A DNA stretch of 64,000 nt from a virus (IMGVR_UViG_3300025000_000065:47970-111969); one strand, 5' to 3'; counted from the first letter of the stretch, positions 26,376-61,886 are shown. The notes: generated by a model not told the origin, from the letters alone. Program-made: numbers and translations.

Positions 26376-27152
26376 TTATCCAAAACCATATAATGAAAGT
26401 AAAGTTCCTGCTCTAAAATTGTATCGAGTTGAATATGTTCCACCTGTTATATACGCTCTAATCCTAGTTATAGGAACAGTGTTTTTCCAAACACCATTTA
26501 TAATAGAAGATTGTCCAGAAACACTTGAAAAAATAGAGGATGAAAATCCCATTGCTGTTTTGTACAATCCACCAGAAGCTGAGTAATTAGGAATAATTCC
26601 AAATACGCTGCCGCTATCAGTTGCTAGATAATTAGGAACACTTCCTATTATAACTCCTCCATTGGTATAAACTTGCAATGTATTGAGTCCTATTAAATCT
26701 CGTAACCATTGAGAAGCAATATAGTTTCCACTATTAGCATCTCCATTAAAATCCAATCCTACATCTGCAAAAGTTCCATTTGTTCCTGCTGCTAATCCCA
26801 TAATTATTAAATGTTTGAAATCTTGAGGAATATCAGTGAAATCAGCCTGACCCAATCCTTCAAATTCATCTATTTTTTGTAATTTTAAATTTAAGGTATC
26901 AACAGCAGAACTTAAAGTAGAAATCGAAGAAGTTATTGTGGATATATCCGAATTAATAGCGGTTATAGAACCACTAATTTGACTTCTAGCGTCCGTTAAA
27001 GAACCACTAATATCTCCTGCAAATGTATCAATTATAGTCATATTACTAACTGATGATCCTGCTACATCATTAGTCCAACTAATAAAACTTCCACTTTGAT
27101 CAGTTGTAGCGTTATACAGAATCAATCCTAAATTTGTACTTGTAGTTGTCAT
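26376..27152 (-). CDS. Putative tail fibre / receptor-binding protein, paralogue A
   Basis: Distal end of the tail module; Ser/Thr-rich stalk plus beta-rich head ending LYG; paralogous to the next ORF. Confidence 0.6.
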   Translation of the reverse strand: MTTTSTNLGLILYNATTDQSGSFISWTNDVAGSSVSNMTIIDTFAGDISGSLTDARSQISGSITAINSDISTITSSISTLSSAVDTLNLKLQKIDEFEGLGQADFTDIPQDFKHLIIMGLAAGTNGTFADVGLDFNGDANSGNYIASQWLRDLIGLNTLQVYTNGGVIIGSVPNYLATDSGSVFGIIPNYSASGGLYKTAMGFSSSIFSSVSGQSSIINGVWKNTVPITRIRAYITGGTYSTRYNFRAGTLLSLYGFG

Positions 27153-27162
27153 ATTTTATTCC

Positions 27163-27951
27163 TTATTCTACACCATAAAGAGTTATTTCAGTTCCATCGA
27201 CAAAATTATATCGTGTTGTATCTGATCCGCTCGAACCAAAAATTCTTATTCTGTCTATAGGACTAGCTGATTGCCAAACACCACCCGATATATTACTCTT
27301 TCTCCAAACATCCTGTGTTACAGAGCCAAATCCAAGTGCTGATTTTTTTAAAACTTGACTTCCAGAATAATTTGGTATAACTCCAAAAACAGAACCACCA
27401 TATCCATAATTATCACTTCCAGAAACACTACTTAAAATTAAATGACCATTAACATCATAATAAGAAAGTGTTTCAGTAGGTGCTGGTATTGTAGAGCCTG
27501 ATCTTTCCCAATTTACACTTATGTAACTTGAAGATGTTGAGACTCCATTAAAATCGATTCCGATAAAAGAAAACATTCCTGGACTTTGAGATGCAGCATT
27601 TCCCATTAAGATTAAATGTTTATAATCTTGAGAAATTGAACTGAAATCGGCTTGTCCAGATCCACTAAAAATACCAAGTATTTCAAATCTGCTAACGGTA
27701 TCAGTTATTTGAGATCCACTTGCTTCGACTTGAGCAGAGGCACTTGTTATAGAACCCGATATAGACAAATCAGAACCCGAATAGCCGGTAATTAAATTAG
27801 TAATATTTAATACTAATTGTCCTGAAAAAATATCAATTTTGGTCATATTACTATCGAATATTCCATTCATCTGTTTTCTTAGTTCATCAAACCCTATATC
27901 TCCATCGGATTTTATATTATATGTAAATAAATTTAAATTAGTTGTAGACAT
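27163..27951 (-). CDS. Putative tail fibre / receptor-binding protein, paralogue B
   Basis: Shares SNMT.ID.F.G, GQADF..I.QD.KHLI.MG, VFG.IPNYS and RYNF..GT...LYG with paralogue A. Confidence 0.6.
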   Translation of the reverse strand: MSTTNLNLFTYNIKSDGDIGFDELRKQMNGIFDSNMTKIDIFSGQLVLNITNLITGYSGSDLSISGSITSASAQVEASGSQITDTVSRFEILGIFSGSGQADFSSISQDYKHLILMGNAASQSPGMFSFIGIDFNGVSTSSSYISVNWERSGSTIPAPTETLSYYDVNGHLILSSVSGSDNYGYGGSVFGVIPNYSGSQVLKKSALGFGSVTQDVWRKSNISGGVWQSASPIDRIRIFGSSGSDTTRYNFVDGTEITLYGVE

Positions 27952-27952
27952 A

Positions 27953-28402
27953 TTAAACTCCACTTTCAATTATTAAGTCAAATGTTATAAAATTTATTCC
28001 TTCAGGTAAAATTCCAGATGATGGACTTCCGCTAGGCAATGTGTGATTTACAACATTTAAATCAGATAAAATTTTTAATGATAAATTAGAAAACATTAAT
28101 GGATCATAGTATTTTAAAATTCCGGTTCTAACAACATGATCCTTTCCATAAAAATATAGAGTATTATTGCTACAAGCCGATATGTCAAAAAATAACCTTT
28201 CTAAATCTTCTGGCTGATCAATTAACAACGTACTTCCGCTAGGCAATGTATGGTTTATGGTGCTTAATGCAGCAAGGGTTTTTAATGATAAATTAGAAAA
28301 CATCAATGGATCATAATATTTTAAAATTCCAGTTCTAACAACATGATCAGTTAAGGAAATATATAAATTCATACTCGCAGAAGTAGAAATTGGAGTAGCC
28401 AT
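27953..28402 (-). CDS. Virion-module protein with an internal tandem duplication
   Basis: DHVVRTGILKYYDPLMFSNLSLK...NHTLPSGS occurs twice, 207 nt apart. Confidence 0.65.
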   Translation of the reverse strand: MATPISTSASMNLYISLTDHVVRTGILKYYDPLMFSNLSLKTLAALSTINHTLPSGSTLLIDQPEDLERLFFDISACSNNTLYFYGKDHVVRTGILKYYDPLMFSNLSLKILSDLNVVNHTLPSGSPSSGILPEGINFITFDLIIESGV

Positions 28403-28403
28403 A

Positions 28404-28763: not shown

Positions 28764-30884
28764 CTAAGTTATCAATGGAACATATTCAAACAACACGCCA
28801 TCTCCAACTTGAATTTCATCAATCATAGTTGCGCCACTAGAAGAAACTTCAGTATAATGAACATCTTTAATTTGGGTAATTCCATTTACATAAATTCTAC
28901 TTGAATTTGTTATATAATTTCCACTTATAGAAATATAACTTCCAGATTGACCAGTTAAATCTTCAATGACTGTTACAGAACTTCCTTCGGCTAAACCACT
29001 ACCACTAATGAAAACTCCGTTTCTAAAAGAAACAACGCCTCCTCCAGCAGTAACAATATCTCTACTAATACCAACACCACCATCTATGGTATATATTGTA
29101 GGTTCTCGTAAAACAACACCTTCTTGATTTAAAATAAAATTTGACGAACCCGTTGTAGAATTTATATTTGTTATATTCAAAGTAGGAGTTGCTGTAATTG
29201 CTCCTTTAATATTTTCAGCAACTATTCCATAAGAAGAAATTCCAGATGGAGTCACTACATTATCTATAATAATAGGTTTATTTGTGCTCCAATCATTATA
29301 AGCATCTTTTGTAAAGCTAACATCCGAAGCAACTTTTAAAGTTTTCTGAATATAATCAGATAAAATAAAACTAGAATCATTTATTCTTTGTTTATTTGAA
29401 ATAACTATTGAGAAATCAGTTGGATCTTCATAATTAAAACTATATTCTAAAAGTGTAGCAGACAACAATAAATTTTCATCTGTTTCTATAGTTATTTGAT
29501 CTCCTAAAACAAACTGACCTGTTATAGAAGAAAATTCAAAAATTGTAGGAAAGTTTATTGTATTAAGCGTAATTTGATATCTAGGAACAGCCATTTTACT
29601 AAGAACAACACTGGCAGCATTATACAATTCTAAACTTTGAGCATTAATTTCTGCATTACTCATTAAACTTGTAATGATTATGTTTTCATTTTTATACGTA
29701 TTTTCATATATAAAATTTGAAAGTTTTAAATATTGATCTGTTGTAAAATTTGATGTATTGGTAAAAGATAATTCATCATTAATATTACTCATAATCAACG
29801 TTGTAGAAGAAATATTGTTTTGTATATTGATAATAACGAGATTTTGATTGTTTATTAAAATTTCTTGTTGATCAATTAACGCTTCTATTTCTGTGGTATC
29901 TAATCCTTGTTCACTTCTTACGTCATAAGTTTGTTGATAAGCCGCCAATTGTGATTGAAGTTCTACTAATGTAGTTTGTTCTGTTGCTAATTCAGTTTGA
30001 TAATCGGTCAATAAAACAGAATATGCAAAATAATCAGTTTCATATAATGTAATTTTATTCTCCCATGCGGTTATTGCATCTACTAAATCTTGAGACATCC
30101 AATTAGAATTTTTATAATAAGAAAAATCATATATCTTATTTGTTCCTAAAGGATTCACATTTCTAATAGTTAAATTTCCACCACCGTAACAGTATAATGC
30201 GGTTGTTATTTCTTCACTAATTTCATTATAATCCTGATCTTTTATTAAATTATCAAAGGACAAATAAATATCCGTTGCCGTTATGTCTCTTTCAACATCC
30301 AATATTTTTATCGATCTATTTAAAAAATCAAAAATAAAAAAACAATTATAAGCAGTTGAAGCATCTGATGTAAGAAATTGATACAAATTTGTATCTGTAA
30401 CATTAAACGTTCTGTATAAATCAATTAATGTTGAATCTATTTGAGAAACACTCCAATTTGGAGCATAAAAAAGAATCAATCCTACCAATGTATCGGTACT
30501 TGTTGGATCATCTACATCATATAATTTATACGTTCCCGTCAATGTATTTATTCTCTTAAAAACAAGTTCAGATTCTCTGCTAAATCCTTTAATATGCTTA
30601 ATGGGAGTTCCCCCATCGTCACTTTTTTCAGGATCTACAATTATAAAATATCCTATTCCATCTAACAAAACAAGTCTCTTAGATTGAAGATAATCAAAAC
30701 CTGGAAGTTCAACTCCATCAATATATTTTGGAAAATCAAATTCTATTTCACTTTGAGCATTAAATCTTAGTATTGGTCTAACGTTATAAGCAGATTCCAA
30801 AGAATAAAGTTGTTCCTCATCTGGATTACATAAAACAATTGATGGACGTTCAGACTGATTATAAACATCAAATGATACCTGCAT
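28764..30884 (-). CDS. Baseplate hub / Tal-like tail protein
   Basis: Gene order TMP-Dit-Tal; ITTALYCYGG...NVNPLGTNKIYDFSYY; coiled coil. Confidence 0.7.
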   Translation of the reverse strand: MQVSFDVYNQSERPSIVLCNPDEEQLYSLESAYNVRPILRFNAQSEIEFDFPKYIDGVELPGFDYLQSKRLVLLDGIGYFIIVDPEKSDDGGTPIKHIKGFSRESELVFKRINTLTGTYKLYDVDDPTSTDTLVGLILFYAPNWSVSQIDSTLIDLYRTFNVTDTNLYQFLTSDASTAYNCFFIFDFLNRSIKILDVERDITATDIYLSFDNLIKDQDYNEISEEITTALYCYGGGNLTIRNVNPLGTNKIYDFSYYKNSNWMSQDLVDAITAWENKITLYETDYFAYSVLLTDYQTELATEQTTLVELQSQLAAYQQTYDVRSEQGLDTTEIEALIDQQEILINNQNLVIINIQNNISSTTLIMSNINDELSFTNTSNFTTDQYLKLSNFIYENTYKNENIIITSLMSNAEINAQSLELYNAASVVLSKMAVPRYQITLNTINFPTIFEFSSITGQFVLGDQITIETDENLLLSATLLEYSFNYEDPTDFSIVISNKQRINDSSFILSDYIQKTLKVASDVSFTKDAYNDWSTNKPIIIDNVVTPSGISSYGIVAENIKGAITATPTLNITNINSTTGSSNFILNQEGVVLREPTIYTIDGGVGISRDIVTAGGGVVSFRNGVFISGSGLAEGSSVTVIEDLTGQSGSYISISGNYITNSSRIYVNGITQIKDVHYTEVSSSGATMIDEIQVGDGVLFEYVPLIT

Positions 30885-30885: not shown

Positions 30886-31677
30886 CTATCCTCCTAAACG
30901 TCTGATAAATTGATATGTAATGTTTAATTGTGTTATATCGCCTGTAAGTTCAAGATTGTTCAACCCATCTTTAAATCTCATAAAATTTTTATTAAAATTA
31001 GACAGTCTTCGATATCCTAAATTTGATTCAATAATTCCTAAGTCAGAATTTACGGTTATTACTTCATATGGAGATAAACTTGTAAATTCAAATTCTCTAT
31101 CAGAATCGCTCGCATTAACAATAGAAATATCGCCACCAGAAGCATTCATTGTAAAAGAAATGTTAGGCTTATTGTATCCCTCATAATGTGAATTATTATA
31201 AAAAACAATAGAACTCCCTGAAGGAGCACTTGTATAATTATATGTTGTTGTTCTAGGGTATGTTCTAACCCATTGAGAATCACAAATACATGTTCCAGAA
31301 AATCCCCTTATCAAATTTCCAGATTTTATAATCTGTGGATTTGTAAAAATTGCTCTAAAATAAATTCCTTCCATATCTGGTTGAGCTATTGCTAAATCTT
31401 TATAGTTCAATGACCCAAACAACCATTTTTGAATATAACTTGCATCTAAAGCAGTTATTTCATCTGGAGAAAAAAAAGTTACAGGAAAAGATAAACTGGA
31501 ACTATATTTTACACCATAAAAATATGGAACAGGTTTTCTAAAAATAAAATCTTGAATTATTTCTACAGTTCCACTTCCGTTTGAACTTATTGTTCCAACG
31601 TCACTTGATGCAATCTGAAGATTATAAGATTCACTTACTTCTCCACCATACACAAAATTTTTTGCATAAAAACCCAT
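30886..31677 (-). CDS. Distal tail protein (Dit)
   Basis: Directly after TMP; 263 aa; IQKWLFG and NKNFMRFKDGLNNL. Confidence 0.75.
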   Translation of the reverse strand: MGFYAKNFVYGGEVSESYNLQIASSDVGTISSNGSGTVEIIQDFIFRKPVPYFYGVKYSSSLSFPVTFFSPDEITALDASYIQKWLFGSLNYKDLAIAQPDMEGIYFRAIFTNPQIIKSGNLIRGFSGTCICDSQWVRTYPRTTTYNYTSAPSGSSIVFYNNSHYEGYNKPNISFTMNASGGDISIVNASDSDREFEFTSLSPYEVITVNSDLGIIESNLGYRRLSNFNKNFMRFKDGLNNLELTGDITQLNITYQFIRRLGG

Positions 31678-31738: not shown

Positions 31739-34432
31739 TTAACCATAAATTGATGCGACATCTCTCACGCTTCCTTGTCTAACAAGAGTAGAATTGATTT
31801 CTTTTATAACATCTCTAGCAATGTCTTTTATTTTTGGAATTGTTTTTTCAATTACATCACCTTGAACCGTAATTAAACTTTCAATATTTAAACCTCCAGA
31901 ACCTTGAGCCTTATTAATAATGTTAGCAACACGAGGAATCATCTTTAAGGTTTTCAATATATCATTGTTATTCATTACCTCTTCACCAACAAGAAGTTTA
32001 GAAAGAATTTCACCTGGTAATGTTCTAACTCCACCTACTGCACCAGAAGATAAACCACTATGATGAGTAGGAAGTGTTTCTGTAGATACAACTGGGGAAA
32101 CTCCACCATATAATGCATCTGCTAAATTTCCGTATTTTAATAATGCATCATAAGCTTCATTCCATGCTTCGACAACATCTGTTACAATTCCAGATCCATA
32201 TTCAGAATTCCAATCTATTAATGATTGATATAAATCAGGAGCTTGTTCCCCAATTCTATCTAATGCATCTTGAGCAATTTGACCAGTTTTATCTAAGTAT
32301 TCATCAATAGCAGAAACAGCCTCTTCAATTATTGCAATTTGAGAATCGATGTTTTCTTTATATAGCTCATATTCTTGATCCAGTGCTTCTTCCTGCAAAT
32401 CATAAGATCTATCTCTTTGAGTTTGTTCTAAGTCTTTTTGAGCATCTGCTAATTCTTCAGCGAGTTCTAACTGTCTTGCTTTAGACTCAGCGGAAGTATC
32501 AAGTGCCAAAATTGCCATTTCAGATTGAATCTGAGCAATAGTTTTAGTTTTATCCTCTAGTTCTTCTTGATATTCTACGGATTCTTGTTCTGCTCTTAAG
32601 ATTTCTTTTTTGGCATCTATAATTTCTTCATAAGCGTCAAGTTGTGCTTCTAATCCATCTATTTGATCTTTTAAAGCATCTTTTCTTGCGTTTTGCTCCG
32701 CTTTAATTAAACTAATGACTAGATTGTGAAGATCTTTAAGTGTTTTTATTTCTTCTTTTGCAGCAGCAGAAGATCCACCACCGCCACCGCCTCCAGCACC
32801 ACCACCTGAATATCCAGGAAAAGCAGATCGAGTTGGAACATTTGTAGGAGGTGGATTGAACGGCAAAGAAACGCCATTTAGAATATCATCACCCATTGGT
32901 TCTGTACTTTGATTAGAAATAACATTTCCACTTGTAGTAACAACAAAATTTAAATAATAATCTCCACTTATCGCATTTGCAGCATTTCCAATATTTAAAA
33001 TGTTACCAATTGCTATTGCAGCAGCTTCATAAGATCCATTTGCTAAATCAATCATGGCTTGATCCATTGAACCCAATACTCTTACAGTTTCCGATCCCAT
33101 GAATCCCCAAGCTGTCATCATATCAGCAGCCATAGTATAGGCTACATTTTTAGCTTCATTGCCTAAAGTAGATAATTGTATTCTTTGAATAAATGTACTA
33201 ACGATAGATGCCTGAAGAGATTTCTCATAAGCATCAGCGGTTTTTAAAATATCCTGTTCAACATTATATAATTCATATTGTAGATCACCCAATTGAGTTA
33301 ATTGCTCATCTGATAATGTTGGTTGTTCTGAAAGTAATCGTATTTCTTCTCTTAATTCTGCCGCTTGAATTCCTGCTTTTTCTTGTTTTTCGTGATAAGA
33401 ATCAAATGCTTTTCCAAATGAATCATCGAGTATATATTGCAGATTATCAAATGCTTGAGATAATTCTTCTGTGCTATCAAAGATTTGACCATGCGCACGT
33501 CTCCAAGCTGTTACCCAAGTATCTAATTCTGCTTTCGTAGCATTAAATAAACCGAGTTCAGCATCAGTAAGAGTTCCAAAATCTTCAGCGGTTTTTACTA
33601 TAACCTTTCCTCCGCTGCTTACAACTCTTATTAACTCACCGTTTTCACCGATGGTATATCCAGCAATTTCCGCTGCTCTTTCTACTGCTTCAATATAATC
33701 ATTATAATTACCTGTTGTATCTTTTAGTGTGGAAATTACTTCTTTCAATCCTTGATCAAGTATTTTTTGTTTATTTACAAAAAGATCAGCTATAATTCCT
33801 GCTCTATTATGAGCTTCATTAACGGAATCCACCATTTTTTTGTATTCACCCATTACTTGTTCGGTGGTCTTAATTTCTTCACCTAAATTTTTAAAAGCAT
33901 TAGACCAAGCATTAGTTGTATTTTCTAATCCTAAATCTTGCTGTTTCTTAACTGTTTGTTGATATGTTATAATTACAGCAGTTAAAGCAACAATTGCGAT
34001 TTGAAAAATTGAAACCCAAGATATAGTTGTTTTTAATAAAAGTTGCAAACTAACTAATGAAAAAGAAAATCCTTGTATAGCCGTAGTTGCACCCATAATT
34101 TTAATAATAAAATTTGCCATTGCTTGGGCACTTAAAACTCCAACCAAACCAATAAGAGATTCTAAAATAGGAATTAGTCCACCCATAGAATCAATTGCTT
34201 CAACAGAAGAAATTCCTAAGTCTAAAAAGAATTTAATGACATCATCATCGATTGCTTTTTGCCATAGGTTTTCCATTGCTGCCTTTAATGTATTTGCTTT
34301 TCCCTCTATGGAATCCATGTAAATTTTATATCGTTCTGTAGCCAATCCAACAGAATGAAGTTGTTGTTCTTGAGCTTCTAGTACCTGGTTGTAGTTTTCC
34401 ATCAAAATTAAAAAATTTTCGCGTTGCCGAAC
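31739..34432 (-). CDS. Tape measure protein, exon 2
   Basis: In-frame VRQRENFLILMENY continues exon 1 (...NAIAG); long helical, coiled-coil and hydrophobic segments. Confidence 0.85.
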   Translation of the reverse strand, partial: VRQRENFLILMENYNQVLEAQEQQLHSVGLATERYKIYMDSIEGKANTLKAAMENLWQKAIDDDVIKFFLDLGISSVEAIDSMGGLIPILESLIGLVGVLSAQAMANFIIKIMGATTAIQGFSFSLVSLQLLLKTTISWVSIFQIAIVALTAVIITYQQTVKKQQDLGLENTTNAWSNAFKNLGEEIKTTEQVMGEYKKMVDSVNEAHNRAGIIADLFVNKQKILDQGLKEVISTLKDTTGNYNDYIEAVERAAEIAGYTIGENGELIRVVSSGGKVIVKTAEDFGTLTDAELGLFNATKAELDTWVTAWRRAHGQIFDSTEELSQAFDNLQYILDDSFGKAFDSYHEKQEKAGIQAAELREEIRLLSEQPTLSDEQLTQLGDLQYELYNVEQDILKTADAYEKSLQASIVSTFIQRIQLSTLGNEAKNVAYTMAADMMTAWGFMGSETVRVLGSMDQAMIDLANGSYEAAAIAIGNILNIGNAANAISGDYYLNFVVTTSGNVISNQSTEPMGDDILNGVSLPFNPPPTNVPTRSAFPGYSGGGAGGGGGGGSSAAAKEEIKTLKDLHNLVISLIKAEQNARKDALKDQIDGLEAQLDAYEEIIDAKKEILRAEQESVEYQEELEDKTKTIAQIQSEMAILALDTSAESKARQLELAEELADAQKDLEQTQRDRSYDLQEEALDQEYELYKENIDSQIAIIEEAVSAIDEYLDKTGQIAQDALDRIGEQAPDLYQSLIDWNSEYGSGIVTDVVEAWNEAYDALLKYGNLADALYGGVSPVVSTETLPTHHSGLSSGAVGGVRTLPGEILSKLLVGEEVMNNNDILKTLKMIPRVANIINKAQGSGGLNIESLITVQGDVIEKTIPKIKDIARDVIKEINSTLVRQGSVRDVASIYG

Positions 34433-35941: not shown

Positions 35942-37126
35942 ACCAGCAATAGCATTTGCAACCGCACTTTGCTCTATTTCATTCATCGTAGACCATTTTT
36001 CAGCAATTTCATCCATTACATCACCCATAGGTCTAAATGAAGTAGCGGTATCTCTTAATCTGATATTGACTAAACCCAATGCTCTTTCAACATCGTTAAT
36101 ATTTGTTTTATCATCTTCAAACATTTTTCCAAGTTTAATGTTTTCTAAACGAGCGAACATCGTCTTCATACTTTGACCTATCGACTCAGCGGAGCGGCGT
36201 GAAACGCTCGAAATCGTAGCAATGTAACTTGTCAACTCATCAAAACTAACTCCTGCTTGTTGAGCAGAAGCAGCAGAATATTGTAGTGCTGTGGCAATTT
36301 CATTAGCCGAGGTTGCCATCCGATTATCCAAATCGATTATTTTATCAACAACCAAACTAGCATCCTCAGCCTCTAACTTAAATCCATTCAAAGTAGCTGT
36401 TAGTTTTTCAGTTGAATCTGCGGATTCCATGTTTCCTAACTTACTCAACATCAAAGTTGACTTCATTAATTCAGAGGTTTCTTCAATTGTCTTTCCTTGC
36501 CTGAACCATTCGAGGCTTCCCTGTGCCACCTGAATTGTTGTAGCACCCATTTCTTTTGCAAGTTTATTATATTCAACCGCTAATCTGTCAACTTCATCGG
36601 CAGTCATTCCCGTAACAATTTGAACATTTGTTAACTCTTTGTTCAAATCTTTAATATATTGTATTCCTTCTTCTATTTTTCGAAGACTTCCATAAATAGC
36701 TTGTGTTGCAAGAAACCATATTGCAACTTTTTTAATAGCAACTTCAAGCATGGATGTAAATCCATAACCATCTTTAGTCGTATTTTTCATAGAAGCACCG
36801 ACTTTAGTAACAGAAGTTCTTAAATCATCAAAACTTCCCCTTACGTCTTGAATAGAAGCACCACCCCTTTGAGAAAAACTAGTAATGTTATCTTGAAGAA
36901 CCTTTAACGATGCTTGAACGTCTGCGTTATTAAAAATATCTGGAGATTTAAATTGCATTCTTGCAATTTGATTATTCCACTGTTTAACATAAGAATCAAT
37001 ATCTTTCTGCCCCATATTGATACTTGTTGTTATTTTAATATTTTTAGTTTTTCTATCTAATTTATCTTGAAGACCTGTAACATCAGGTTCAATGCCAACT
37101 ATAATATTATAACCACCATTAGCCAT
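35942..37126 (-). CDS. Tape measure protein, exon 1 (spliced product about 1292 aa)
   Basis: TP901-type TMP core (ELTNVQIVTG, EWFRQG, SAESIGQSMKTMFARL); GGAGG SD before ATG 37126. Confidence 0.88.
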
Positions 37127-37164
37127 TAATAACCCTCCTTTCAACCTCTAGAAAAGAGGCAATT

Positions 37165-38160: not shown

Positions 38161-38169
38161 ATTCCCTCC

Positions 38170-38806: not shown

Positions 38807-39115
38807 TTATGCGCTATTGTTTTTATCAACAATATGAAAAGCTTTAGTTCCTAAAACATAAGTAATTACAGTTACGACAACCATAAAATACGGAGAAGCC
38901 TGTGCAATAAGCTCCTGAGGAACAAAAGTTGTAATTGCTAAAGCCCCAATACCTAATAGAGAAGGAATGACAATCATTAAAAATTGTTTTACTTTAGCTG
39001 TTTGTGCTTGAAACCAATCCCATCTTTCAGCTAAAAATGAAACTAATAAAGCCCCACCGCCACCAGTCAACCAAATTAAAAACCCACCTAAATCTTGAAA
39101 TTTTTCTTCAGCCAT
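38807..39115 (-). CDS. Putative holin
   Basis: 102 aa, three hydrophobic segments, charged C-terminus, late region. Confidence 0.6.
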   Translation of the reverse strand: MAEEKFQDLGGFLIWLTGGGGALLVSFLAERWDWFQAQTAKVKQFLMIVIPSLLGIGALAITTFVPQELIAQASPYFMVVVTVITYVLGTKAFHIVDKNNSA

Positions 39116-41045: not shown

Positions 41046-42071
41046 TTATGCCGTGCCAACAGCACTGAATGTATCCGTCAAAGATCCGCTTGTAGCATCG
41101 TAATAAGTTGCAGTAAACAATGCAGCGTCTCCAGCCCCAACAGTTGCACAAGCAGAAACAATTCCGGTTGCTGCACCAATGTTGAACGTAGTACATCCAC
41201 TTGTTCTAACCCAAGATGCCGATGTAGTAATACTAGCATTTGCATAAGTTCCACCACGAATACCTAAAAGATTAGCCTGTTTAGATTTTGGTAAATCTGC
41301 TGTACTGAAAGTTAAAACCGTAGGGGTAATAGCAATACTAGAAACAGCAATAGTAGAAGTAGAAACAGGAATCCACGCTACACGATAATAGTAGTTTGGA
41401 TCGGTTGTAGTAGAAGTAACTTCTAAGGCTTTACCATCAAGGGTTTCAGTAGAAACACCATTAGCGGTCATAGCCAAACTATAATTACCGGAAATTTGAA
41501 ATCGTGGAACATGAATTTGAAGTCTTTCAACAAGACCAGTGTTATCTTTGACTTCCGCAATCAAAATTAAATCTACGATATCTGGAGCTTCAGTTGTAGA
41601 ACCAACAACATAATCAACAGTATCAGTATAAGTATAAATTGCAGTAACTTTTTGAGTTCCACCACCAGAAACTGTAATAGTCGTACTAACCGGAGTTACA
41701 GTTTGAATTGTTCCATTTGGCAGTACCACACTAACATTTCCAAGAGGAGTTTCACTTAAAGTCCCATCATCAGCAGCTAAAACTATATCTTCTTGTTTCA
41801 CACAAGTCAATGCACCATTCTCTACTGATCCTCCTGCATTTAAAGCCAAAATAGACTTTGAAAAAATAGCAGATTCAATTGAAAGTTCAACCATACGATC
41901 ATGATAGAAACTATAAAGTAATGGATTTCCAATTCCTCCACGAACATCTGTATTCTGCATAGTAATATTGAAAGCAGAATTAATGTTTGCTTTACCTATA
42001 GCTAAGGTTTCAAGAGTAGTTGGATTTCTCAATATTGCATCTGCAACACTAACTAAGAAATTATTTGCCAT
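41046..42071 (-). CDS. Major tail (tube) protein with an Ig-like C-terminus
   Basis: DVRGGIGNPL, codon bias of a highly expressed gene, position after the neck genes. Confidence 0.75.
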   Translation of the reverse strand: MANNFLVSVADAILRNPTTLETLAIGKANINSAFNITMQNTDVRGGIGNPLLYSFYHDRMVELSIESAIFSKSILALNAGGSVENGALTCVKQEDIVLAADDGTLSETPLGNVSVVLPNGTIQTVTPVSTTITVSGGGTQKVTAIYTYTDTVDYVVGSTTEAPDIVDLILIAEVKDNTGLVERLQIHVPRFQISGNYSLAMTANGVSTETLDGKALEVTSTTTDPNYYYRVAWIPVSTSTIAVSSIAITPTVLTFSTADLPKSKQANLLGIRGGTYANASITTSASWVRTSGCTTFNIGAATGIVSACATVGAGDAALFTATYYDATSGSLTDTFSAVGTA

Positions 42072-43472: not shown

Positions 43473-45596
43473 CTAAATCCAATAACCATGAATACGTAAC
43501 CATACATCCATTGTTCCTGCGCCACTTGCTATAATTTGATAATAAATATCTCCATTGGCATCACATGAAACAGTCATTTGAGTTGCTGTTCTTCTGTCAT
43601 TTATTTCACTTGCCTTCCACACCAGCCCTTGATTTGCTGTATTTGTTGGGTCTAAATAAATATAGCTGTCTGTTCCTGCTGACGCACTATCTCTAATGTC
43701 TACATAGACTGACACAGCCTTTACTCCGGCAGGTACACCAAAGACTGCCGATAAATCAATAAGTGTTTTTGCGGTTGTGCTGAATGAATCGCCATCCCAT
43801 GCCGTAGATGTAAGAGGAGTAGTAAGTGGTATGAATGTAGATGAACCAAAGGGCATGGTGTCCGCTACTGCTGCATGAGAATAATAAAAGTTTGATATAG
43901 CTGCATTGGACACTGTGTATGTCCCACCACCATATACAGTCACAGTAGTAACATCTGTTCCAGAATCATAACTTGAAGATAATACATAAAAATATTTTGT
44001 TGTGGTTTGATCAAATCTTACCTTAGTCCCTATAACAAACAGGTCAGTAAAATCCCCATCGTACACTTTGAATGATGATGCTGATACGTACTCAACAGTA
44101 ACAACATTTACTCCCCAGTTTAGTTCGTTCCAGGGAAATAGTGCATTTGCATATACTCTATTTCCAGTTATTGAGAGTGTATAATCTGCATTTAATACTA
44201 TTCCAACTGTGGCTGTGGTTGACACTCCAGAACTGGTTAGTTTCCACTGCGAATAAATTTGTGATAGCTCAAAAAGTCCTGCATATCCACCAGAAGATCC
44301 TGTATAGGCTAAACACTGTAAACTTAACTGTGCACCAGACCCGTACCCTCTCACTTTTACTGCTAACCTTGAAGTCATAGTTGGATCGTTGTCATACACA
44401 CCACCCTGAATAGTGACAGCATTGGGAACATCTGTATTATAACTAGATAATGGATTCACCCATACTATTTGACTTCCTGGAGTGTCTTCTGGCAGTGACC
44501 CACTAGAGTAGTCATCCGCAGTCAGGTTTACTCCATCATCATCTAGCCAAGATAAAAACGATCCAGATACATTGCCAAATTTCAATCCCACATTGTCTAA
44601 TACCGCCTTTTGTGTATCTGAATTTAGCGCATATAATCCGCTCCTGTCTAGCCATAATCCCGTACCAGAACCACTTGAGCTAGGAACAGGATCGCCTATA
44701 GATATTGCTGAATTAGTACCATTCATATTCAAAACGTTGCTAATAAACGCACCCGTACTTTTAAATTCCATAATTGGTGTATCATAAATATTTATTCTTA
44801 CTCCATTAATTGAATCGATTGTTACGTTTCCGCTTCCACTTCCATACGATCCAATGGCAACGCCCCATTCTTCAGAGGAGTAATTCCAATTCCCATTCAA
44901 ATCACCAATTCTAATAATCTCTTTTTGTTGATTATATGTTTCTCCCTGTTGAATTAATTGAATTCTCGGAGTATCATAAGCATTTAATTCAATTCTTCCA
45001 TCTCCCGATTCACCTAATTCAAGAAAAACACTACCTTCAACCCAATCATTAGCTCCACTTCCATCTAAATCTCGAACCACATTATAAACAGTGCTTCCAG
45101 AAGCTAAAGAACCAGTTCCAATATATTCTACCTGTAAAGAGGATCTCAAAACAACAGATCCTCCCACAATCATAGTTTTACCAAAATCTATAGTAGCATC
45201 AGTAGAATCTACAAAAGAAGGAATTGAACCCTGATTCTTACCAATAATTAACCATCCTCCAACTAAAGAAGCAGTATTTTCAGCAAAAATAATCGTATCT
45301 AATTCACTAAGCCAACCTTTTCTCCACAAATTAATAGAAGATCCCAAATCGTAGGTATCCGTACTTTCAGGTAAAACATTTCTTAATGTGCTATTTCCTT
45401 GAACATTTAAAGAAGCAAGTGTAACTCCTCCAGAAGCCGTACTTTTTAATATTGTTTCAGCACTTCCACTAGAAACATTATAACTAGCAACAACTCCCAT
45501 CTTGATATCTGGATAAACCCCCTGTTCCGTTAAATGACTTCCAGATAAATCAACTAAATTTAATTGTCTTGGAGTAATAGGATAAGGATTTGCCAT
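43473..45596 (-). CDS. Fibre-like virion protein (707 aa) inserted among the neck genes
   Basis: P..T.TYDLGSS..LW repeat and RIGDLNG; Ser/Gly/Thr-rich; beta-rich C-terminal domain (GVPAGVKAV...IHGYWI). Confidence 0.6.
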   Translation of the reverse strand: MANPYPITPRQLNLVDLSGSHLTEQGVYPDIKMGVVASYNVSSGSAETILKSTASGGVTLASLNVQGNSTLRNVLPESTDTYDLGSSINLWRKGWLSELDTIIFAENTASLVGGWLIIGKNQGSIPSFVDSTDATIDFGKTMIVGGSVVLRSSLQVEYIGTGSLASGSTVYNVVRDLDGSGANDWVEGSVFLELGESGDGRIELNAYDTPRIQLIQQGETYNQQKEIIRIGDLNGNWNYSSEEWGVAIGSYGSGSGNVTIDSINGVRINIYDTPIMEFKSTGAFISNVLNMNGTNSAISIGDPVPSSSGSGTGLWLDRSGLYALNSDTQKAVLDNVGLKFGNVSGSFLSWLDDDGVNLTADDYSSGSLPEDTPGSQIVWVNPLSSYNTDVPNAVTIQGGVYDNDPTMTSRLAVKVRGYGSGAQLSLQCLAYTGSSGGYAGLFELSQIYSQWKLTSSGVSTTATVGIVLNADYTLSITGNRVYANALFPWNELNWGVNVVTVEYVSASSFKVYDGDFTDLFVIGTKVRFDQTTTKYFYVLSSSYDSGTDVTTVTVYGGGTYTVSNAAISNFYYSHAAVADTMPFGSSTFIPLTTPLTSTAWDGDSFSTTAKTLIDLSAVFGVPAGVKAVSVYVDIRDSASAGTDSYIYLDPTNTANQGLVWKASEINDRRTATQMTVSCDANGDIYYQIIASGAGTMDVWLRIHGYWI

Positions 45597-45600: not shown

Positions 45601-46872
45601 TCACCATGCTCCCTTTAATTCAATACTCAGATTTTTAGTAATAGATCCACTAGAAGTAAGAGTTAATATTAATGGATAATCTAAGAACATTTCATTATTT
45701 TTTATAGAAAAATTATTTCCATCTATTTGAGTAAGAGTATATTTTGAATCAGGAACATTTTTGTCATATAGAGAAATAGAAAAAGTATCTGCTTGCAAAA
45801 CATCATTTTGATATAAACTAACAGTATAATCTTCTGTATCTCCCTCTAAAATATATCTATCACTAGGAGTTATTCTAATATCACTTTCAATGATAGCACT
45901 AGACGAAACAAGAGAAACAGTATCATATACACTTGAATTATCCTCTAAATAAGATGTAATTACACAAGAACCAGTGGATAAAATATTTACAACACCACTT
46001 CCTGAAACACTTGCAACACTACATGAACTTGTAGTATATAAAACATCTTTACTAATTATCAATTCGTTTAATGTAACCACACTTTCTAATTTAAAGCTAT
46101 CTCCAATTCCACCATAAATAGCTGAAGGAGAAGTAACCAATGAAAAGACAATTTTATTAGCATCTGCAATTCCATTTGTTAAATCATCTGTATCTTCATT
46201 CACGAGGCTTTTCCCTAAAACAAGTTCCATAACTGTCGATGTATCATTATCAACACTAGTGTTATTCAAATAATTTTTAACTCCACCTCCATAAACACGA
46301 TAGCACATCCAATTATTTTCATTTCCAAATAAGAATCTTTGATTTTCTTTTATTTTATTTGTTCTACTATTTTGTTGTGCAAATATATGAATTGTACCTT
46401 CGGGCGTAATTGGATCAGTTGTGTTATTGTTGGGAGAAGCAATCTTATAATCAATTACACATGGTTCTTCATAAATGATTCCATTTTGATCAGTCCATCG
46501 TAAAACATTATTACATCTTCTCGCTAATGCTGTTACAGTAATTGATTTTACGACATTCACATTTGTTACAATCCAATAATTACTATCAAAATAATATTTA
46601 TAACCAAGTCCAACAGTATGATCAGATTTAAATAATAATTGTTTAAAATCATCACTTAATTTCATTCCAGTATCATTTGATATTGCGGTTGTGACTCTTG
46701 CATCCACATCAACTAAAGATCCAGATGAAAAAACAGTTTCCTCTTGAATGGTATAAACATTTGGAGAGTTATAAAAATCAGCATCCAAAAAAGAATTAAA
46801 ACTGTTTCTCCACCCTGTATTTGGAGGATATGCATTTATTGGAGATCCAGATAAAAAATATTTATATGTCAT
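45601..46872 (-). CDS. Head closure-like protein with Ig-like domains
   Basis: RRCNNVLRW...YEEPC and QRFLFG; C-terminal Ig-like strands. Confidence 0.55.
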   Translation of the reverse strand: MTYKYFLSGSPINAYPPNTGWRNSFNSFLDADFYNSPNVYTIQEETVFSSGSLVDVDARVTTAISNDTGMKLSDDFKQLLFKSDHTVGLGYKYYFDSNYWIVTNVNVVKSITVTALARRCNNVLRWTDQNGIIYEEPCVIDYKIASPNNNTTDPITPEGTIHIFAQQNSRTNKIKENQRFLFGNENNWMCYRVYGGGVKNYLNNTSVDNDTSTVMELVLGKSLVNEDTDDLTNGIADANKIVFSLVTSPSAIYGGIGDSFKLESVVTLNELIISKDVLYTTSSCSVASVSGSGVVNILSTGSCVITSYLEDNSSVYDTVSLVSSSAIIESDIRITPSDRYILEGDTEDYTVSLYQNDVLQADTFSISLYDKNVPDSKYTLTQIDGNNFSIKNNEMFLDYPLILTLTSSGSITKNLSIELKGAW

Positions 46873-46882
46873 AGTTATTCTC

Positions 46883-47344
46883 CTAATATGCTGAAAAATC
46901 CTGGTCAAGCCAAGCATTCCACATATCCGCATCTTTTAATTTATAATTCATTAATTTTTGACTAATTTCAGATCTCTTACTATTGTACAACTGTTGTTTT
47001 TCCCTTAAATTTTGTGCATTAGAATGAATTTTAAAATCTCTATCTTGTATAAAATTATTCATCTGCAAAATATCTTGAACAGTTTTTTGCAGCCAAAACA
47101 ATATCATTATCTCAGCTAACAGGTTTTTATTCTTTTGAGTTAAAGTTTCAGTAAAACTTTGTGTAGTTGTAGAATATTCTAAATCTTGATCACAAACATC
47201 AAACATATCTATTGAAAAGAGTAGCCAAGGCTCTAAATAAGTATTTAAGGCTGAACTTCCAGAAGAATTATAAACCGCTGTTAATCTATAATCTTCATTT
47301 AAACTTAAAAACAAATCAAAAACATCTTCAGCAGAAGTTCCCAT
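46883..47344 (-). CDS. Head-tail adaptor-like protein
   Basis: VFDLFL....DYRL, LAEIM...WL and DFKIHSNAQNL; GGAGG SD. Confidence 0.55.
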   Translation of the reverse strand: MGTSAEDVFDLFLSLNEDYRLTAVYNSSGSSALNTYLEPWLLFSIDMFDVCDQDLEYSTTTQSFTETLTQKNKNLLAEIMILFWLQKTVQDILQMNNFIQDRDFKIHSNAQNLREKQQLYNSKRSEISQKLMNYKLKDADMWNAWLDQDFSAY

Positions 47345-47465
47345 AAAACCTCCTTTCAAAAATTTTATTTTTAAATTGAAGATGACAATTTTTGTCAATT
47401 CAATGTATTTTCTAAGTAAATAGCCCCTAATAAAGAGGCTATATATAAAAATTTAATATTTATTA

Positions 47466-50538: not shown

Positions 50539-51081
50539 TTAGTTAGAAAGACAAATCATTCGATAAGCTGTAACTCTACCACTTGCAACCGCAGGATTAC
50601 CAATAGATATCCATTTTGTAGCCAGATATTTAAATGATAAAGCATTTGCGGCATGTGCTGATCCCCAAACCAATTGCCATAAACCAGTTGTAGCATTAGC
50701 ATAAGTATTAGTAGATTTTGCGGCAGTGAAACAATCTTCACTTAAAGTTACAATATCACCTGGTTGTGGTTTAAAAGCATCAAACACACGATTTGCAGGA
50801 TTGTAGAAATTACGAGGATCTTCTGAACCCTGATTAAAAATTTCACCATCTGCGGACTCTAAGAAAGGAATAACCTGTCCAACAGCCATCCATACGTCAA
50901 CCAAACTGCCAGTTGCAATTTGAGTTGCGGCAAACACCTCTCCCTGTCCAGAACCACTTGAAAGTGAATCTAAACGAAACAGAGAAGCCTGTTCCAAATC
51001 ACTACCACTCGTTGCTGTTCGATTGTAAATCGCCACATCGGTAGCGGCAACTTGATTTAATTCAATAACTGCATATGCCAT
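50539..51081 (-). CDS. Putative capsid decoration / minor head protein
   Basis: 180 aa between protease and MCP; RNFYNPA...AF....GD; GGAGGT SD. Confidence 0.6.
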   Translation of the reverse strand: MAYAVIELNQVAATDVAIYNRTATSGSDLEQASLFRLDSLSSGSGQGEVFAATQIATGSLVDVWMAVGQVIPFLESADGEIFNQGSEDPRNFYNPANRVFDAFKPQPGDIVTLSEDCFTAAKSTNTYANATTGLWQLVWGSAHAANALSFKYLATKWISIGNPAVASGRVTAYRMICLSN

Positions 51082-53669: not shown

Positions 53670-53689
53670 AATAAAAGGTATGTTTTATT
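53670..53689. repeat. AATAAAA-N6-TTTTATT palindrome, copy 5
   Basis: AATAAAA ggtatg TTTTATT. Confidence 0.7.
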
Positions 53690-54017
53690 GGAAAGTGACA
53701 AGATTAATAATATCGCCTGTTTGAATTACATTAGCGGCAGGACTTGAAATTGTAACTGTTCCTGAAGTATTTTTGACATAATACTGTGAACCACTTGTGG
53801 GAATAACCAAAGAACCAGATGAGCGAAATTGTTGAAAAATATATCCTGTAACAGAATCTAGTCCGCTATCAATTGCTACGCTTGAAGCACTCGCTTGAGC
53901 AGAAGAAACAGTAGTGGCAGATACACCCTGAAATCCCTGAACCAAAGTTCCCAATGAAACATCTTGAGATGCACGATTCATTTTATTTAATTTTGATTTT
54001 TGTGTTGCAGTAATCAT
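53685..54017 (-). CDS. Small Ser-rich putative virion protein
   Basis: 110 aa; N-terminal KLNKMNRASQDVSLGTL is shared with 61095..61886. Confidence 0.6.
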   Translation of the reverse strand: MITATQKSKLNKMNRASQDVSLGTLVQGFQGVSATTVSSAQASASSVAIDSGLDSVTGYIFQQFRSSGSLVIPTSGSQYYVKNTSGTVTISSPAANVIQTGDIINLVTFQ

Positions 54018-58565: not shown

Positions 58566-58632
58566 ATTTTTAAACTCCAATACCAATAAAAGATCTTTTT
58601 TATTTAAAAATTTGCATCCCAAGATGCATCAG

Positions 58633-58707
58633 TAAAGGTGACTGGATTTGAACCAGTGATATCTACTTCCCAAAAGTAGCGCCTTAACCAGACTCGACTA
58701 CACCTTT
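58633..58707 (-). tRNA. tRNA-Pro (UGG), CCA not encoded
   Basis: Acceptor stem AAAGGUG/CACCUUU; anticodon arm CUACU-UUUGGGA-AGUAG; T arm ACUGG-UUCAAAU-CCAGU; discriminator A. Confidence 0.88.
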
Positions 58708-59526: not shown

Positions 59527-59546
59527 AATAAAATCTCCCTTTTATT
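59527..59546. repeat. AATAAAA-N6-TTTTATT palindrome, copy 6
   Basis: AATAAAA tctccc TTTTATT. Confidence 0.7.
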
Positions 59547-59727: not shown

Positions 59728-59744
59728 TTATTTTTTAACCTTTT

Positions 59745-61034
59745 TTAATTTGGAATATTTATATACCATTGTTCTTCAAGACCTTTTTCCAAATCCCAAA
59801 GAAAACAACAGGTACTTCTAACAGCACCAACAAATCCTTTTTCATAATGCCAATTATCCGTTGGAGACATACTTGGTAAATATCGGCAAATTGTTCCACT
59901 CTTCTCAACGGTATGCTGAGAGTGTATGTGACCCATGTGTACCTCAGAATATTTTGTTTTTCCCCACTCTTCTCTTGCCTCTACCTGTAACCAGCCACTA
60001 GAGTTAGCTTTAGATAGATTTCCGTGTGAAATTCCTAAAAGTGTATTTCCTATAACTCTAAATTTTCTAATTTTATGATCCGTATCAATTTTAACACCAT
60101 TATGTTTTCTGAAATACATCTCCAATGATTTTACAAGATAATAAGAAAATCCTAAATCATGATTTCCAGGAATATGTAAAACTTCTACTTCAGCAATATT
60201 TGACAATTGTTCAATTGCATCTATAAACATGGTTGTTGTTTCATCAAAAACGGTTTGAAGTGTTTTATTATTAGAAACAGGAGTTCCACTTGTAGTAGCT
60301 CCATTAATACTATCAAAATTACTTGTATCGCCCATAGGAGTAAAATAAATTTTACTTATATTTTTGTCTTTTGTTCGATTTATAATTTCAGATAAAGTAT
60401 AATAAAAATCATCCTGTACAGTATCATCGTTTAGATAAGGCAGTTTTCCATTATGTAAATCAGCTATATCTATTTCTAAAACCTTCTCATTAACATCTTT
60501 ATATTTTTTTAAGTTTATCTTTGATTGATATTTATGATTCTCAAAAAAATTATCAACATCTTCAAAGGTAATAGATTTATTTTGTTTTGGTTTTGCGGTA
60601 AGACGAGATTGATAAAGTAGTAACCTTCCTTGATCATTTTTTCTTTGAGAATTCCATAGGTTATTTCTTACTAAATAAACTTCCCATAAATCAGGGTCAA
60701 GATTATGCAATTCTAACATTCTTTTAGGACTTCGTTTATCTTCTTCGCTCATTTCAACAAGCTTATCAGAATAATAAGTTCCATCTTGTTTCAATTCTGA
60801 AGCCTCATTATATATTACTTCATCTGCATCAATACTTTGATCCAAATCTTTTACATTATTATTAGAAACCATTTTTGTAAGAATGCCCTTTTTATATCTT
60901 TCTTTTTTAAATGCGGAGCGCATTGCTTCTTTACTAACATATTCATTGGGATATTTTTCCATTAATATATCCCAATATCTAGGTATTTTATTTAAATAAT
61001 ACTTGTAACATTCTTTGAAAATATGATCTTTCAA
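59745..61034 (-). CDS. Metallophosphoesterase-family protein with N-terminal extension
   Basis: ADLHNGK, MGD, PGNHD, SHG and MGHIHS. Confidence 0.8.
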   Translation of the reverse strand: MKDHIFKECYKYYLNKIPRYWDILMEKYPNEYVSKEAMRSAFKKERYKKGILTKMVSNNNVKDLDQSIDADEVIYNEASELKQDGTYYSDKLVEMSEEDKRSPKRMLELHNLDPDLWEVYLVRNNLWNSQRKNDQGRLLLYQSRLTAKPKQNKSITFEDVDNFFENHKYQSKINLKKYKDVNEKVLEIDIADLHNGKLPYLNDDTVQDDFYYTLSEIINRTKDKNISKIYFTPMGDTSNFDSINGATTSGTPVSNNKTLQTVFDETTTMFIDAIEQLSNIAEVEVLHIPGNHDLGFSYYLVKSLEMYFRKHNGVKIDTDHKIRKFRVIGNTLLGISHGNLSKANSSGWLQVEAREEWGKTKYSEVHMGHIHSQHTVEKSGTICRYLPSMSPTDNWHYEKGFVGAVRSTCCFLWDLEKGLEEQWYINIPN

Positions 61035-61071
61035 AAGTTTGCTCCTTGTTTAATAATTTTTATTTCCTTAT

Positions 61072-61091
61072 AATAAAATCTCTGTTTTATT
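61072..61091. repeat. AATAAAA-N6-TTTTATT palindrome, copy 7
   Basis: AATAAAA tctctg TTTTATT. Confidence 0.7.
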
Positions 61092-61094
61092 ATT

Positions 61095-61886
61095 TTATCC
61101 GTTCTTTATCCACTCTTCATTACTTCCCAAAGAATCTATTTGATAATGAATGTCAAATTCCAAAAATCTTACATCTTGAGGATACGTGTCCGATCCACTT
61201 GATCCAATTCTCGAAATTCTCCATAAAATTATGGTAGATAAAACTTTTTCAGACATTTCCAAAACAGAAAAATTTGAAGCATTATGTTCATTTAAAGTTC
61301 CATCAGCATAAACAGAAATGGCACTGGTATATGTATAACTTCCACTATATGCCTCTCCTACGTTTGCGACATCACAATCTAACTGCCATACAATACTTCC
61401 TGTAGAAGTAGATGTTGGACTCCAATGGATATGAGGATGAACAAAACTTCCTTCTTTCCATCTATGAGGCATTTGAGCCTGTCCTGCACATATTTCAATT
61501 GATGCAGGATCAAATAAAAAAGTTCCGATAAAAGGAGTGTCCAATGTGTCTTTTGATGCATCCGAAAGTCCTCCAGGAGGATTGATACCAGATGCGGGAT
61601 ATCTTAAATCTTCCCATGTTACAGCAGATCCAGTTAATCTAAGTTCTCCACGATTATTTACAGATAAGAAATCATTTTCACTTCCTATTTTTACCACTGA
61701 ACCAGATCCGTTTTGAAAAACATTTAATAAAGGAGATCCAGAAGAACCAGAAATATTTAATAAACTTATGGGACTTCCAGAATTTACCACATTATCTAAT
61801 TGCTTTAAAATTGTTCCTAAATTTACATTTTGGGAGGCTCGATTCATTCTGTTTAGTTTGGTTTCGTGATCATTACTTATAGGCAC
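61095..61886 (-). CDS. Putative head fibre / virion protein
   Basis: GELRLTGSA..WEDLR, QMPH.WKEGS..HPHIHW and FDIHYQIDSLGS; SGS-rich; AGGAGG SD. Confidence 0.6.
   Translation of the reverse strand: MPISNDHETKLNRMNRASQNVNLGTILKQLDNVVNSGSPISLLNISGSSGSPLLNVFQNGSGSVVKIGSENDFLSVNNRGELRLTGSAVTWEDLRYPASGINPPGGLSDASKDTLDTPFIGTFLFDPASIEICAGQAQMPHRWKEGSFVHPHIHWSPTSTSTGSIVWQLDCDVANVGEAYSGSYTYTSAISVYADGTLNEHNASNFSVLEMSEKVLSTIILWRISRIGSSGSDTYPQDVRFLEFDIHYQIDSLGSNEEWIKNG

Follow-up and report, generated by a model that had tools for sequence, protein, structure and literature searches.

We note that the tripeptide Ser-Gly-Ser (SGS) is strongly over-represented in the virion proteins of an uncultured phage, and that it behaves as a selected, sequon-like tag on what are predicted to be exposed proteins of the virion. 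The DNA analysed here (the window) is a stretch of 64,000 nucleotides that runs from base 47970 to the last base, 111969, of a virus record (IMGVR_UViG_3300025000_000065); coordinates are those of the window unless marked as genome, and open reading frames (ORFs) are labelled by their left coordinate. The record has a GC content of 28.4%, is estimated to be 93% complete and belongs to a long-tailed phage: early genes form a (+) arm, and the late, (-) arm encodes TerL, the portal, the major capsid protein (MCP), the tail tube, a split tape-measure protein (TMP), Dit, Tal, fibre-like proteins and a GH25 lysin. The SGS excess resides in the late arm, and among related phages it co-occurs with one clade of phage-encoded glycosyltransferases (GTs). 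We consider it somewhat better than an even chance, with a probability of about 0.55, that SGS serves as the sequon at which exposed virion proteins are O-glycosylated in the cytoplasm by a phage-encoded system centred on a GT-B/GT2 pair.

The 40 proteins of the late arm contain 44 copies of SGS as compared to 7.12 expected from the composition of each protein (z=13.8, Poisson P ~1e-20), and SGS is by far their top tripeptide, the runner-up reaching z=5.4; the remaining 135 ORFs of the genome hold 5 copies against 4.2 expected. At least one copy is present in 14 of the 40 late proteins (5.7 expected). The excess that the original prediction had drawn from counts by hand persists when it is corrected for composition (44 versus 7.1). 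It might be supposed that such an excess is a statistical or compositional artefact of Ser/Gly patches, DNA repeats or paralogous domains, given that the carriers are Ser/Gly-rich (S 11-17%, G 5-12%) and that one paralog pair supplies 12 of the 44 sites, but this explanation is practically refuted. Composition and local S/G patches are ruled out by the per-protein expectation together with shuffling by blocks: 2000 shuffles of whole proteins gave a mean of 7.0 and a maximum of 17 SGS, and 2000 shuffles within 10-residue blocks a mean of 9.4 and a maximum of 19. The excess is also specific to the order of the residues, the permutations SSG and GSS occurring 19 and 14 times, respectively, against the 44 of SGS (binomial P=3e-5). 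A DNA repeat or DNA motif is ruled out since 45 sites are encoded by 23 distinct 9-mers in which both Ser codon families appear at background proportions, as had been proposed from the varied codons. Similarly, a shared mobile domain is ruled out because the 14 carriers have almost no mutual similarity; only the paralog pair 26376/27163 and one 47-residue match between 53685 and 61095 were found, which bears out the earlier description of the carriers as unrelated. With composition, DNA repeats and shared domains set aside, selection must be acting on the peptide.

For comparison we examined 80 IMG/VR loci with MCPs 43-95% identical. In about half of these SGS is the top-enriched tripeptide and the others are at expectation, and on the tree of their MCPs the trait switches state five times or more. 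Whole-record counts of SGS are given here as observed/expected. The rich genomes include this phage (G000, 49/11.3), G001 (46/14.0), G002 (55/15.3), G011 (57/13.4) and the partial contigs G013 (40/9.4; 63% complete) and G009 (46/9.3; 50% complete), while a search with the GT-B enzyme added G045 (58/12.6), G047 (76/15.5) and G051 (39/10.6; 85% complete), in each of which SGS is top-enriched, as it also is in G048 (16/4.8), found by the same search. The neutral genomes include G005 (17/13.1), G006 (20/14.5), G007 (8/9.0), G010 (15/12.6) and G003 (12/9.0). Among the first twelve genomes compared, the seven rich ones when pooled hold 311 SGS versus 78.9 expected (z=26; runner-up tripeptide z=9.4), and the five neutral ones 72 versus 58.2. 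The neutral relatives carry orthologous virion proteins without the excess. The closest named phages are Enterocloster phages, for instance PMBT24 (MCP identity 37%), the structural genes of which are neutral for SGS (3/4.2), and SPbeta-like Bacillus and Staphylococcus phages are more distant named relatives. A megablast search of the late arm and a tblastn search of its 707-residue protein 43473 against named phages returned no matches, and a search for the host in genome contigs recovered only phage contigs mis-binned into unrelated metagenome-assembled genomes and no host. The trait is also present in G049, an unrelated phage of 52% GC that has no structural gene in common with this phage; here SGS is again top-enriched (25/6.4), and a GT-B/GT2 pair directly adjoins two fibre-like proteins with 6 and 11 SGS.

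Most of the glycan module of this phage lies upstream of the window, the GT-B/GT2 pair being 4-6 kb upstream. The phage encodes soluble GTs of its own, namely three GT2 enzymes (PF00535) and one GT-B, together with a GT-like protein of 309 residues. The GT-B (406 residues) is encoded at genome 42,952-44,172 and is adjoined by its GT2 partner (genome 41,727-42,554); a second GT2 (genome 40,909-41,751) and the viral GT-like 309-residue protein (genome 39,999-40,928) precede them; two epimerase/dehydratases (genome 35,068-36,072 and 38,788-39,735) and a methyltransferase (genome 47,429-48,055) flank these. As a separate observation, a tyrosine recombinase, the second of this phage, adjoins the GT-B at genome 44,248-45,138. 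A blind contrast of gene content between this phage plus three rich genomes and four neutral ones found two GT2 enzymes and the GT-B in all of the rich genomes and none of the neutral. An extended contrast within the same capsid family (seven neutral genomes and six rich ones with a completeness of 85% or more) found the GT-B and two GT2 enzymes in every rich genome and no neutral one, and the 309-residue protein in 5/6 rich and 0/7 neutral. A tail-module protein (39859-40482) that was only weakly similar passed the first contrast, and was rejected as a rich-specific gene when it later matched neutral genomes. Among relatives in which both characters could be judged, presence of the GT-B clade and SGS state are concordant in 14/14, seven rich genomes carrying it and seven neutral ones being without it; relatives lacking the GTs could have been equally rich in SGS, and those judged GT-lacking are neutral. 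SGS thus shares the hallmark of recognised sequons (cf. N-x-S/T and the Bacteroidetes D-S/T-A/I/L/V/M/T) of being over-represented in its substrates, here candidate ones, with a presence that tracks the transferase.

The mechanism that we envisage is as follows. The GT4-like GT-B and the adjacent GT2 would recognise S-G-S where it is exposed on freshly synthesised virion proteins, perhaps assisted by the second GT2 and the 309-residue protein; a sugar would be put on serine by the phage GTs and then extended; and the accessories (the two epimerase/dehydratases, the methyltransferase, a third GT2 and GmhA-like and HddA-like proteins) would set the composition of the glycan in each phage, so that fibres, tail and head-accessory proteins would end up coated with glycan. 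The excess of the motif, selection for it at the level of protein and its co-occurrence with the GT clade are shown by the analysis; from these we infer the attachment of a sugar, the serine that receives it, the GT responsible and the function of the coat.

The original prediction had linked SGS to a GT/gmhA/hddA cluster, had credited the phage with heptose synthesis and had likened the system to the heptosyltransferases of autotransporters. The link to phage GTs holds, although for the genes at genome 39,999-44,172 (the GT-B, the GT2 enzymes and the 309-residue protein) and not for those it had named. The third GT2 (67..888, (+); PF00535, E=2e-11) and the kinase (1506..2495, (+); GHMP, HddA-like, PF00288 + PF08544) have homologs only in G001 and G004, and the SIS-domain, GmhA-like isomerase (898..1437, (+); PF13580) has its sole homolog in G001; these three genes were rejected as correlated enzymes and, on their distribution, are variable lineage-specific accessories and not part of the correlated core. 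The claim of heptose synthesis is weakened on closer inspection. The best NCBIfam match of the isomerase is gmhA at 64 bits against a cut-off of 209 bits, and that of the kinase is HddA at 139 bits against a cut-off of 600 bits; no HddC-type NTP_transferase (PF00483) was matched in the genome, which is 93% complete, and this leaves a gap in the heptose pathway; Pfam and NCBIfam scans identified no GmhB-type phosphatase among the glycan-module proteins. Likewise, the autotransporter analogy is unsupported because the same scans of the module revealed no member of the heptosyltransferase family (TibC/Aah), the matches being GT2, GT4-like, epimerase, SIS, GHMP and methyltransferase. The notion of a sequon-directed virion glycan therefore stands as to the kind of system, which is linked to GTs, and not as to the genes.

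The GT-B itself scores 22.3 bits against a Pfam cut-off of 27 bits (Glycos_transf_1/Glyco_trans_1_4 signatures), many of its homologs carry PF13692, and PF00534 was not detected in G001. A sequence search against the PDB gave chance matches only. Its model (predicted local distance difference test score, pLDDT, 91) has a GT4-like fold of two Rossmann domains, the N-domain being interrupted by an inserted beta-hairpin (residues 123-162). In a tree of GT-B proteins from an IMG/VR search, 11/11 SGS-rich records fall in one clade; five other phages occupy two other supported clades (G052, G053 and G054 neutral; G056 at 2.8x and G057 at 1.4x), and a further clade is bacterial. As a prospective test, G060 and G062 were picked solely for having a GT-B in the SGS clade, and both proved to be enriched (40/12.8 and 30/14.4, respectively). 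In these two phages (loci L326-L345) SAS is as raised as SGS (40/12.5 and 32/13.1), which may mean that acceptor specificity has moved to S-[G/A]-S. A shift of the motif with the GT-B clade is as would be predicted of a reader-sequon pair, and the series (SGS, SGS+SAS and a looser [S/T][G/A]S) suggests that motif and enzyme clade co-evolve.

The twelve principal carriers, all on the (-) strand, hold 40 SGS in total, and the hand counts of the original prediction were exact for each of them. They comprise two tail-fibre-like paralogs, 26376..27152 (258 residues, 4 SGS) and 27163..27969 (268 residues, 8 SGS, the densest carrier); a protein of 149 residues downstream of Tal (27953..28402) with 2 SGS, each in the context NHTLP-SGS; the Tal-like minor tail protein (28764..30884, phrog_6211; 706 residues) with 2 SGS in its C-terminal part; Dit (30886..31677, phrog_33; 263 residues, 1 SGS); a tail tube-like virion protein (41046..42071, phrog_2729; 341 residues) with 1 SGS 12 residues from its C-terminus; a protein of 707 residues between the head and tail genes (43473..45596, 7 SGS), the G001 homolog of which has 1466 residues and 14 SGS; a conserved virion-module protein (45601..46932; 443 residues, 4 SGS); a conserved protein of 171 residues (46883..47398, 1 SGS); an Ala-rich protein just upstream of the MCP gene (50539..51081; 180 residues, 2 SGS), a candidate for scaffold or decoration; a protein of 110 residues that adjoins the portal (53685..54017, 2 SGS); and a protein of 263 residues at the head of the late arm (61095..61886, 6 SGS), the G004 homolog of which also has 6. 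In addition, TerL (55720) has 1 SGS and a further late-strand ORF (genome 691-1251) has 3. None was found in TMP (both exons), the portal or the MCP, as had been reported. The early arm within the window had been thought to hold about 2; it holds 3, namely the predicted copy in the FAGSGS motif of a methyltransferase (10050) and those in 10738 and 12467.

Alignments of orthologs reveal that most SGS sites are lineage-specific and occupy different columns in different rich lineages; for instance, in Tal, G001 has SGS where others read VDD, PLD or IVS. A few sites are kept across all rich genomes and are absent from the neutral ones, namely column 47 of 46883, the C-terminus of the tail tube and column 325 of 45601. 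In 46883 the SGS stands at one column in 4/4 rich genomes and the neutral orthologs read S-V, TGI, S-I and S-E; in the tail tube the C-terminal SGS (column 354) is present in 4/4 aligned rich genomes and 0/2 neutral orthologs; and 45601 has one site common to three rich genomes, its others being lineage-specific. Between close relatives, SGS is retained at 52/59 sites, whereas the same proteins keep 66% of their other S/G/T-rich tripeptides (Fisher P=2e-4), a difference that is indicative only since the relatives are not independent.

The 26376/27163 family, of which there are two or three tandem paralogs per genome, is modelled (pLDDT ~88) as a long helical stalk followed by a C-terminal beta-sandwich that matches C-terminal domains of viral tail-fibre proteins in BFVD; a Foldseek search of the model against the PDB gave weak lectin-like matches only. 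In the model of 27163, five SGS (residues 102, 157, 183, 202 and 247) are placed in loops or where strands end in the beta-sandwich, and those at 64, 71 and 84 are on the stalk helix (7- or 11-residue spacing), placements that accord with exposure. Intervals of 7, 11, 14 or 18 residues separate the stalk sites across the family and would bring them onto one face of a predicted coiled coil. Over 308 sites, E and K are depleted at positions -1 and +1 and V, T, I and L are enriched at +2.

These placements could alternatively mean that SGS carries no modification and serves structure or solubility, as a motif for a surface turn or coiled-coil triplet of beta-rich, fibre-like proteins that has been co-inherited with the GT cluster. 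The flanks do alternate between beta-branched and hydrophobic residues, and the sites do sit at strand ends or at helical e-f-g-like positions, but orthologs of the same fold in relatives that lack the GTs have other residues there and no excess. Neither would such a motif be expected to single out one tripeptide: in the pooled rich genomes the near variants TGS, SAS and AGS are raised 1.67x, 1.69x and 1.59x and SGT 1.33x, with NGS at 1.0x, SGD at 1.05x, GGS at 0.9x and SSS likewise at or below expectation, so that the variants of equal turn propensity (SGT at 1.3x, NGS, SGD and GGS) stand near expectation. Contrasts on the MCP tree are underpowered, which leaves some room for co-inheritance; against it, sites turn over between lineages as density is maintained, and the trait recurs with the same enzymes in the unrelated phage of 52% GC. 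We regard this explanation as improbable. The SAS and TGS variants mentioned in the original prediction are indeed present in the late proteins of this genome, although only mildly raised (~1.7-2x). We observed separately that SAS is also raised in G009 (24/8.8).

Another alternative would be that SGS serves a different modification or interaction (phosphorylation, glycosylation by the host, or a chaperone or assembly signal), that the GTs act on DNA, the envelope or a small molecule, and that shared hosts explain the co-occurrence. We think this unlikely, yet it is a rival to be taken seriously. Were SGS read by something other than the GTs, the reader might be expected among the genes that co-vary with it, but no kinase or other modifying enzyme co-varied in the gene-content contrasts, in which the well-matched rich-specific families are all GT-like. 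A target other than protein would be in keeping with the location of the cluster in the early arm, adjoining nucleotide-metabolism genes; no thymidylate-synthase-like hydroxymethylase was found in the genome, however, which removes the usual way of making glycosylated DNA bases, although not other DNA chemistries. As to the envelope, the glycan-module proteins have no transmembrane-like segments and the genome encodes no large multi-pass membrane protein, hence no candidate for a flippase, polymerase or GT-C enzyme and no membrane machinery for envelope glycans. A small-molecule target gains some credit from the fold of the GT-B, since the nearest solved structures are lipid and small-molecule GT4 enzymes, but the GT-B/GT2 pair stands directly beside SGS-dense fibre genes in the unrelated G049 and a GT-B subclade tracks the shift to SGS+SAS. 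Two further points favour this rival, namely that G013 and G009 are SGS-rich with no GT seen in their partial contigs and that independent contrasts are few.

Several observations weigh against sequon-directed glycosylation by the phage GTs. The first is that a sugar on SGS is predicted here from sequence and not from chemistry. The MCP is without SGS in every genome aligned. As modelled, the GT-B is nearest to lipid and small-molecule GT4 enzymes and less so to known protein O-GTs: the top Foldseek matches are PimA, MshA, BshA, PglA and a B. anthracis GT4 enzyme (E down to 9e-15), and GtfC of the accessory Sec system appears only at rank 30. The independent events are few: three changes of state on the MCP tree suffice to account for the 14/14 concordance, the well-supported branches yield a single independent pair (G051 versus G003/G006), and a sign test on independent pairs is underpowered to the point of being unable to reach significance, with G049 adding one lineage outside the MCP tree. 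In G062, one of the two phages picked prospectively, the enrichment reaches only 2.1x. Phages of 46-50% GC carry another clade of GT-B, distant from the first, namely G063, G056 and G057 (loci L334-L338, L249-L250 and L232-L237, respectively); G063 and G056 have a weaker and looser [S/T/A]-[G/A]-S excess (SGS, TGS, TAS and AGS at ~2-3x), and G057 has none despite its GT-B. Finally, no GT was found in the partial, SGS-rich contigs of G013 (63%) and G009 (50%), and their clade is possibly the chief counter-example. The search in G013, G009, G014 and G017 yielded only an epimerase and a PNP_UDP phosphorylase, the epimerase of G014, a member of this clade, being at a contig edge. G051 is sister to G013 and G009 (100/99) and collinear with them, and it carries the cluster at 95-105 kb, a region not seen in the collinear part of G013, near the end of which synteny is scrambled. 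On a separate matter, the early region of G013 encodes a Mom-family protein (L143:952-1614), a C5 DNA methylase (L142:13855-14862) and an RtcB ligase (L141:14946-16142), which suggests DNA modification, a trait in which the relatives differ.

Phage-encoded virion glycosylation is known experimentally from a few mycobacteriophages. Virion O-glycosylation by phage GTs has been described in these (Freeman et al. 2023, as cited in PMC12619734 and PMC10877033), and the glycans are reported, as cited in PMC12619734, to be at the C-termini of capsid and tail-tube subunits. The scheme proposed here is alike in that the phage's own soluble GTs would decorate its own structural proteins, and the SGS 12 residues from the tail-tube C-terminus in the rich genomes aligned recalls the mycobacteriophage tail tubes. 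It differs in the candidate signal, which here is a fixed tripeptide scattered through a dozen kinds of virion protein, chiefly those of fibres, tail tip and accessory structures, and absent from the MCP, and in the putative enzymes, a GT4-like GT-B and GT2 pair of low-GC uncultured phages.

SdgA/SdgB (Ser-Asp repeats) and GtfA/GtfB (Ser-rich repeats) are cytoplasmic GT-B O-GlcNAc transferases of Gram-positive adhesins, soluble and of GT4 type, that act on Ser in D-S-D or S-A/V-S, with further GTs extending the glycan before the adhesin reaches the surface. The mild co-enrichment of SAS and the shift of one GT-B subclade to SAS recall their S-A-S repeats. Their substrates, however, are long tandem repeats in one or a few host adhesins and not isolated tripeptides across folded virion proteins, and in the fold search with the GT-B every protein O-GT came below PimA, MshA and BshA. 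Similarly, TibC/Aah (the BAHT family) use heptose to O-glycosylate, in the cytoplasm, serines that lie within short Gly-containing stretches of beta-rich surface proteins, whereas only GT2 or GT4-like enzymes are found here and the heptose genes do not co-vary with SGS. Chloroviruses and giant viruses glycosylate their capsids with self-encoded enzymes at non-canonical sequons (PMC9614988, PMC5408694). Here too the machinery would be virus-encoded and cytoplasmic, including sugar-nucleotide enzymes, and would act on the virus's own structural proteins in virus-specific contexts; unlike here, their glycans are N-linked to the MCP of eukaryotic viruses, as compared to candidate O-linked Ser in tailed phages of which the MCP is no carrier. 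Soluble GTs of the FlmG type O-glycosylate exposed Ser/Thr of flagellin in the cytoplasm before assembly (PMC7591256). FlmG-type enzymes are not known to have a strict sequon, a protein-binding domain giving the specificity, in contrast to the tripeptide indicated here.

In the literature searched we found no report of an SGS sequon, nor of any defined sequon for phage virion glycosylation. If our reading is correct, SGS would be the first sequence-defined sequon of this kind and, with its enzymes, a compact cytoplasmic tag-and-writer pair, and virion glycosylation would become predictable site by site from sequence across many uncultured phages. We would put at a little under even odds the broader proposal that in widespread environmental tailed phages a tripeptide O-sequon, S-G-S, which shifts by enzyme clade to S-[G/A]-S or [S/T]-[G/A]-S, is read by a dedicated GT4-like GT-B/GT2 pair that moves between unrelated lineages and coats fibres, tail and head accessories with the phage's own glycan. 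The roles of such a coat would be testable, for instance shielding of fibres from proteases or defence, stability, adhesion, or evasion of antibodies by therapeutic phages, and these tests would need only three residues mutated or two genes deleted. A three-residue tag with soluble writers would also be a useful tool for cytoplasmic glyco-engineering, and the series of motifs and clades would offer natural material for studies of GT-B acceptor specificity.

Further features of the genome were observed in passing. The tape-measure gene (within 31739-37144, (-)) is split into the ORFs 35885-37144 and 31739-34405, and between these exons lies an HNH/D5-like endonuclease ORF (34631-35740), so that the arrangement resembles an intron or homing element. 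An HNH endonuclease ORF (48248-49312, (-)) directly downstream of the MCP gene is an insertion that most relatives are without at this position. In the early arm, the ORF at 4506-6599 (+) encodes an AAA_24 (RecA-like) protein with an internal LAGLIDADG_3 domain (residues 248-310) that is likely to be an intein or an inserted homing endonuclease. Within the tail module, between the chaperone region and TMP, a tyrosine recombinase (331 residues) and a RuvC-like resolvase are encoded at 37165-38625 (-), and this pair keeps its position in relatives, including the RuvC of PMBT24. Also in the tail module is a holin-like protein of 102 residues with three transmembrane-like segments (38807-39115, (-)), distant from the GH25 lysin (25270-26295). 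The region 62000-64000 has a GC content of 42%, as compared to ~29% elsewhere, and contains an ORF of 110 residues (62294-62626) that encodes two chitin-binding modules of the CBM_5_12 type, as well as a Gly/Ala-rich ORF of 344 residues (62931-63965). A single tRNA-Pro (UGG) gene is located in the late arm at 58632-58707 (-), between the ORFs 57564 and 58736.

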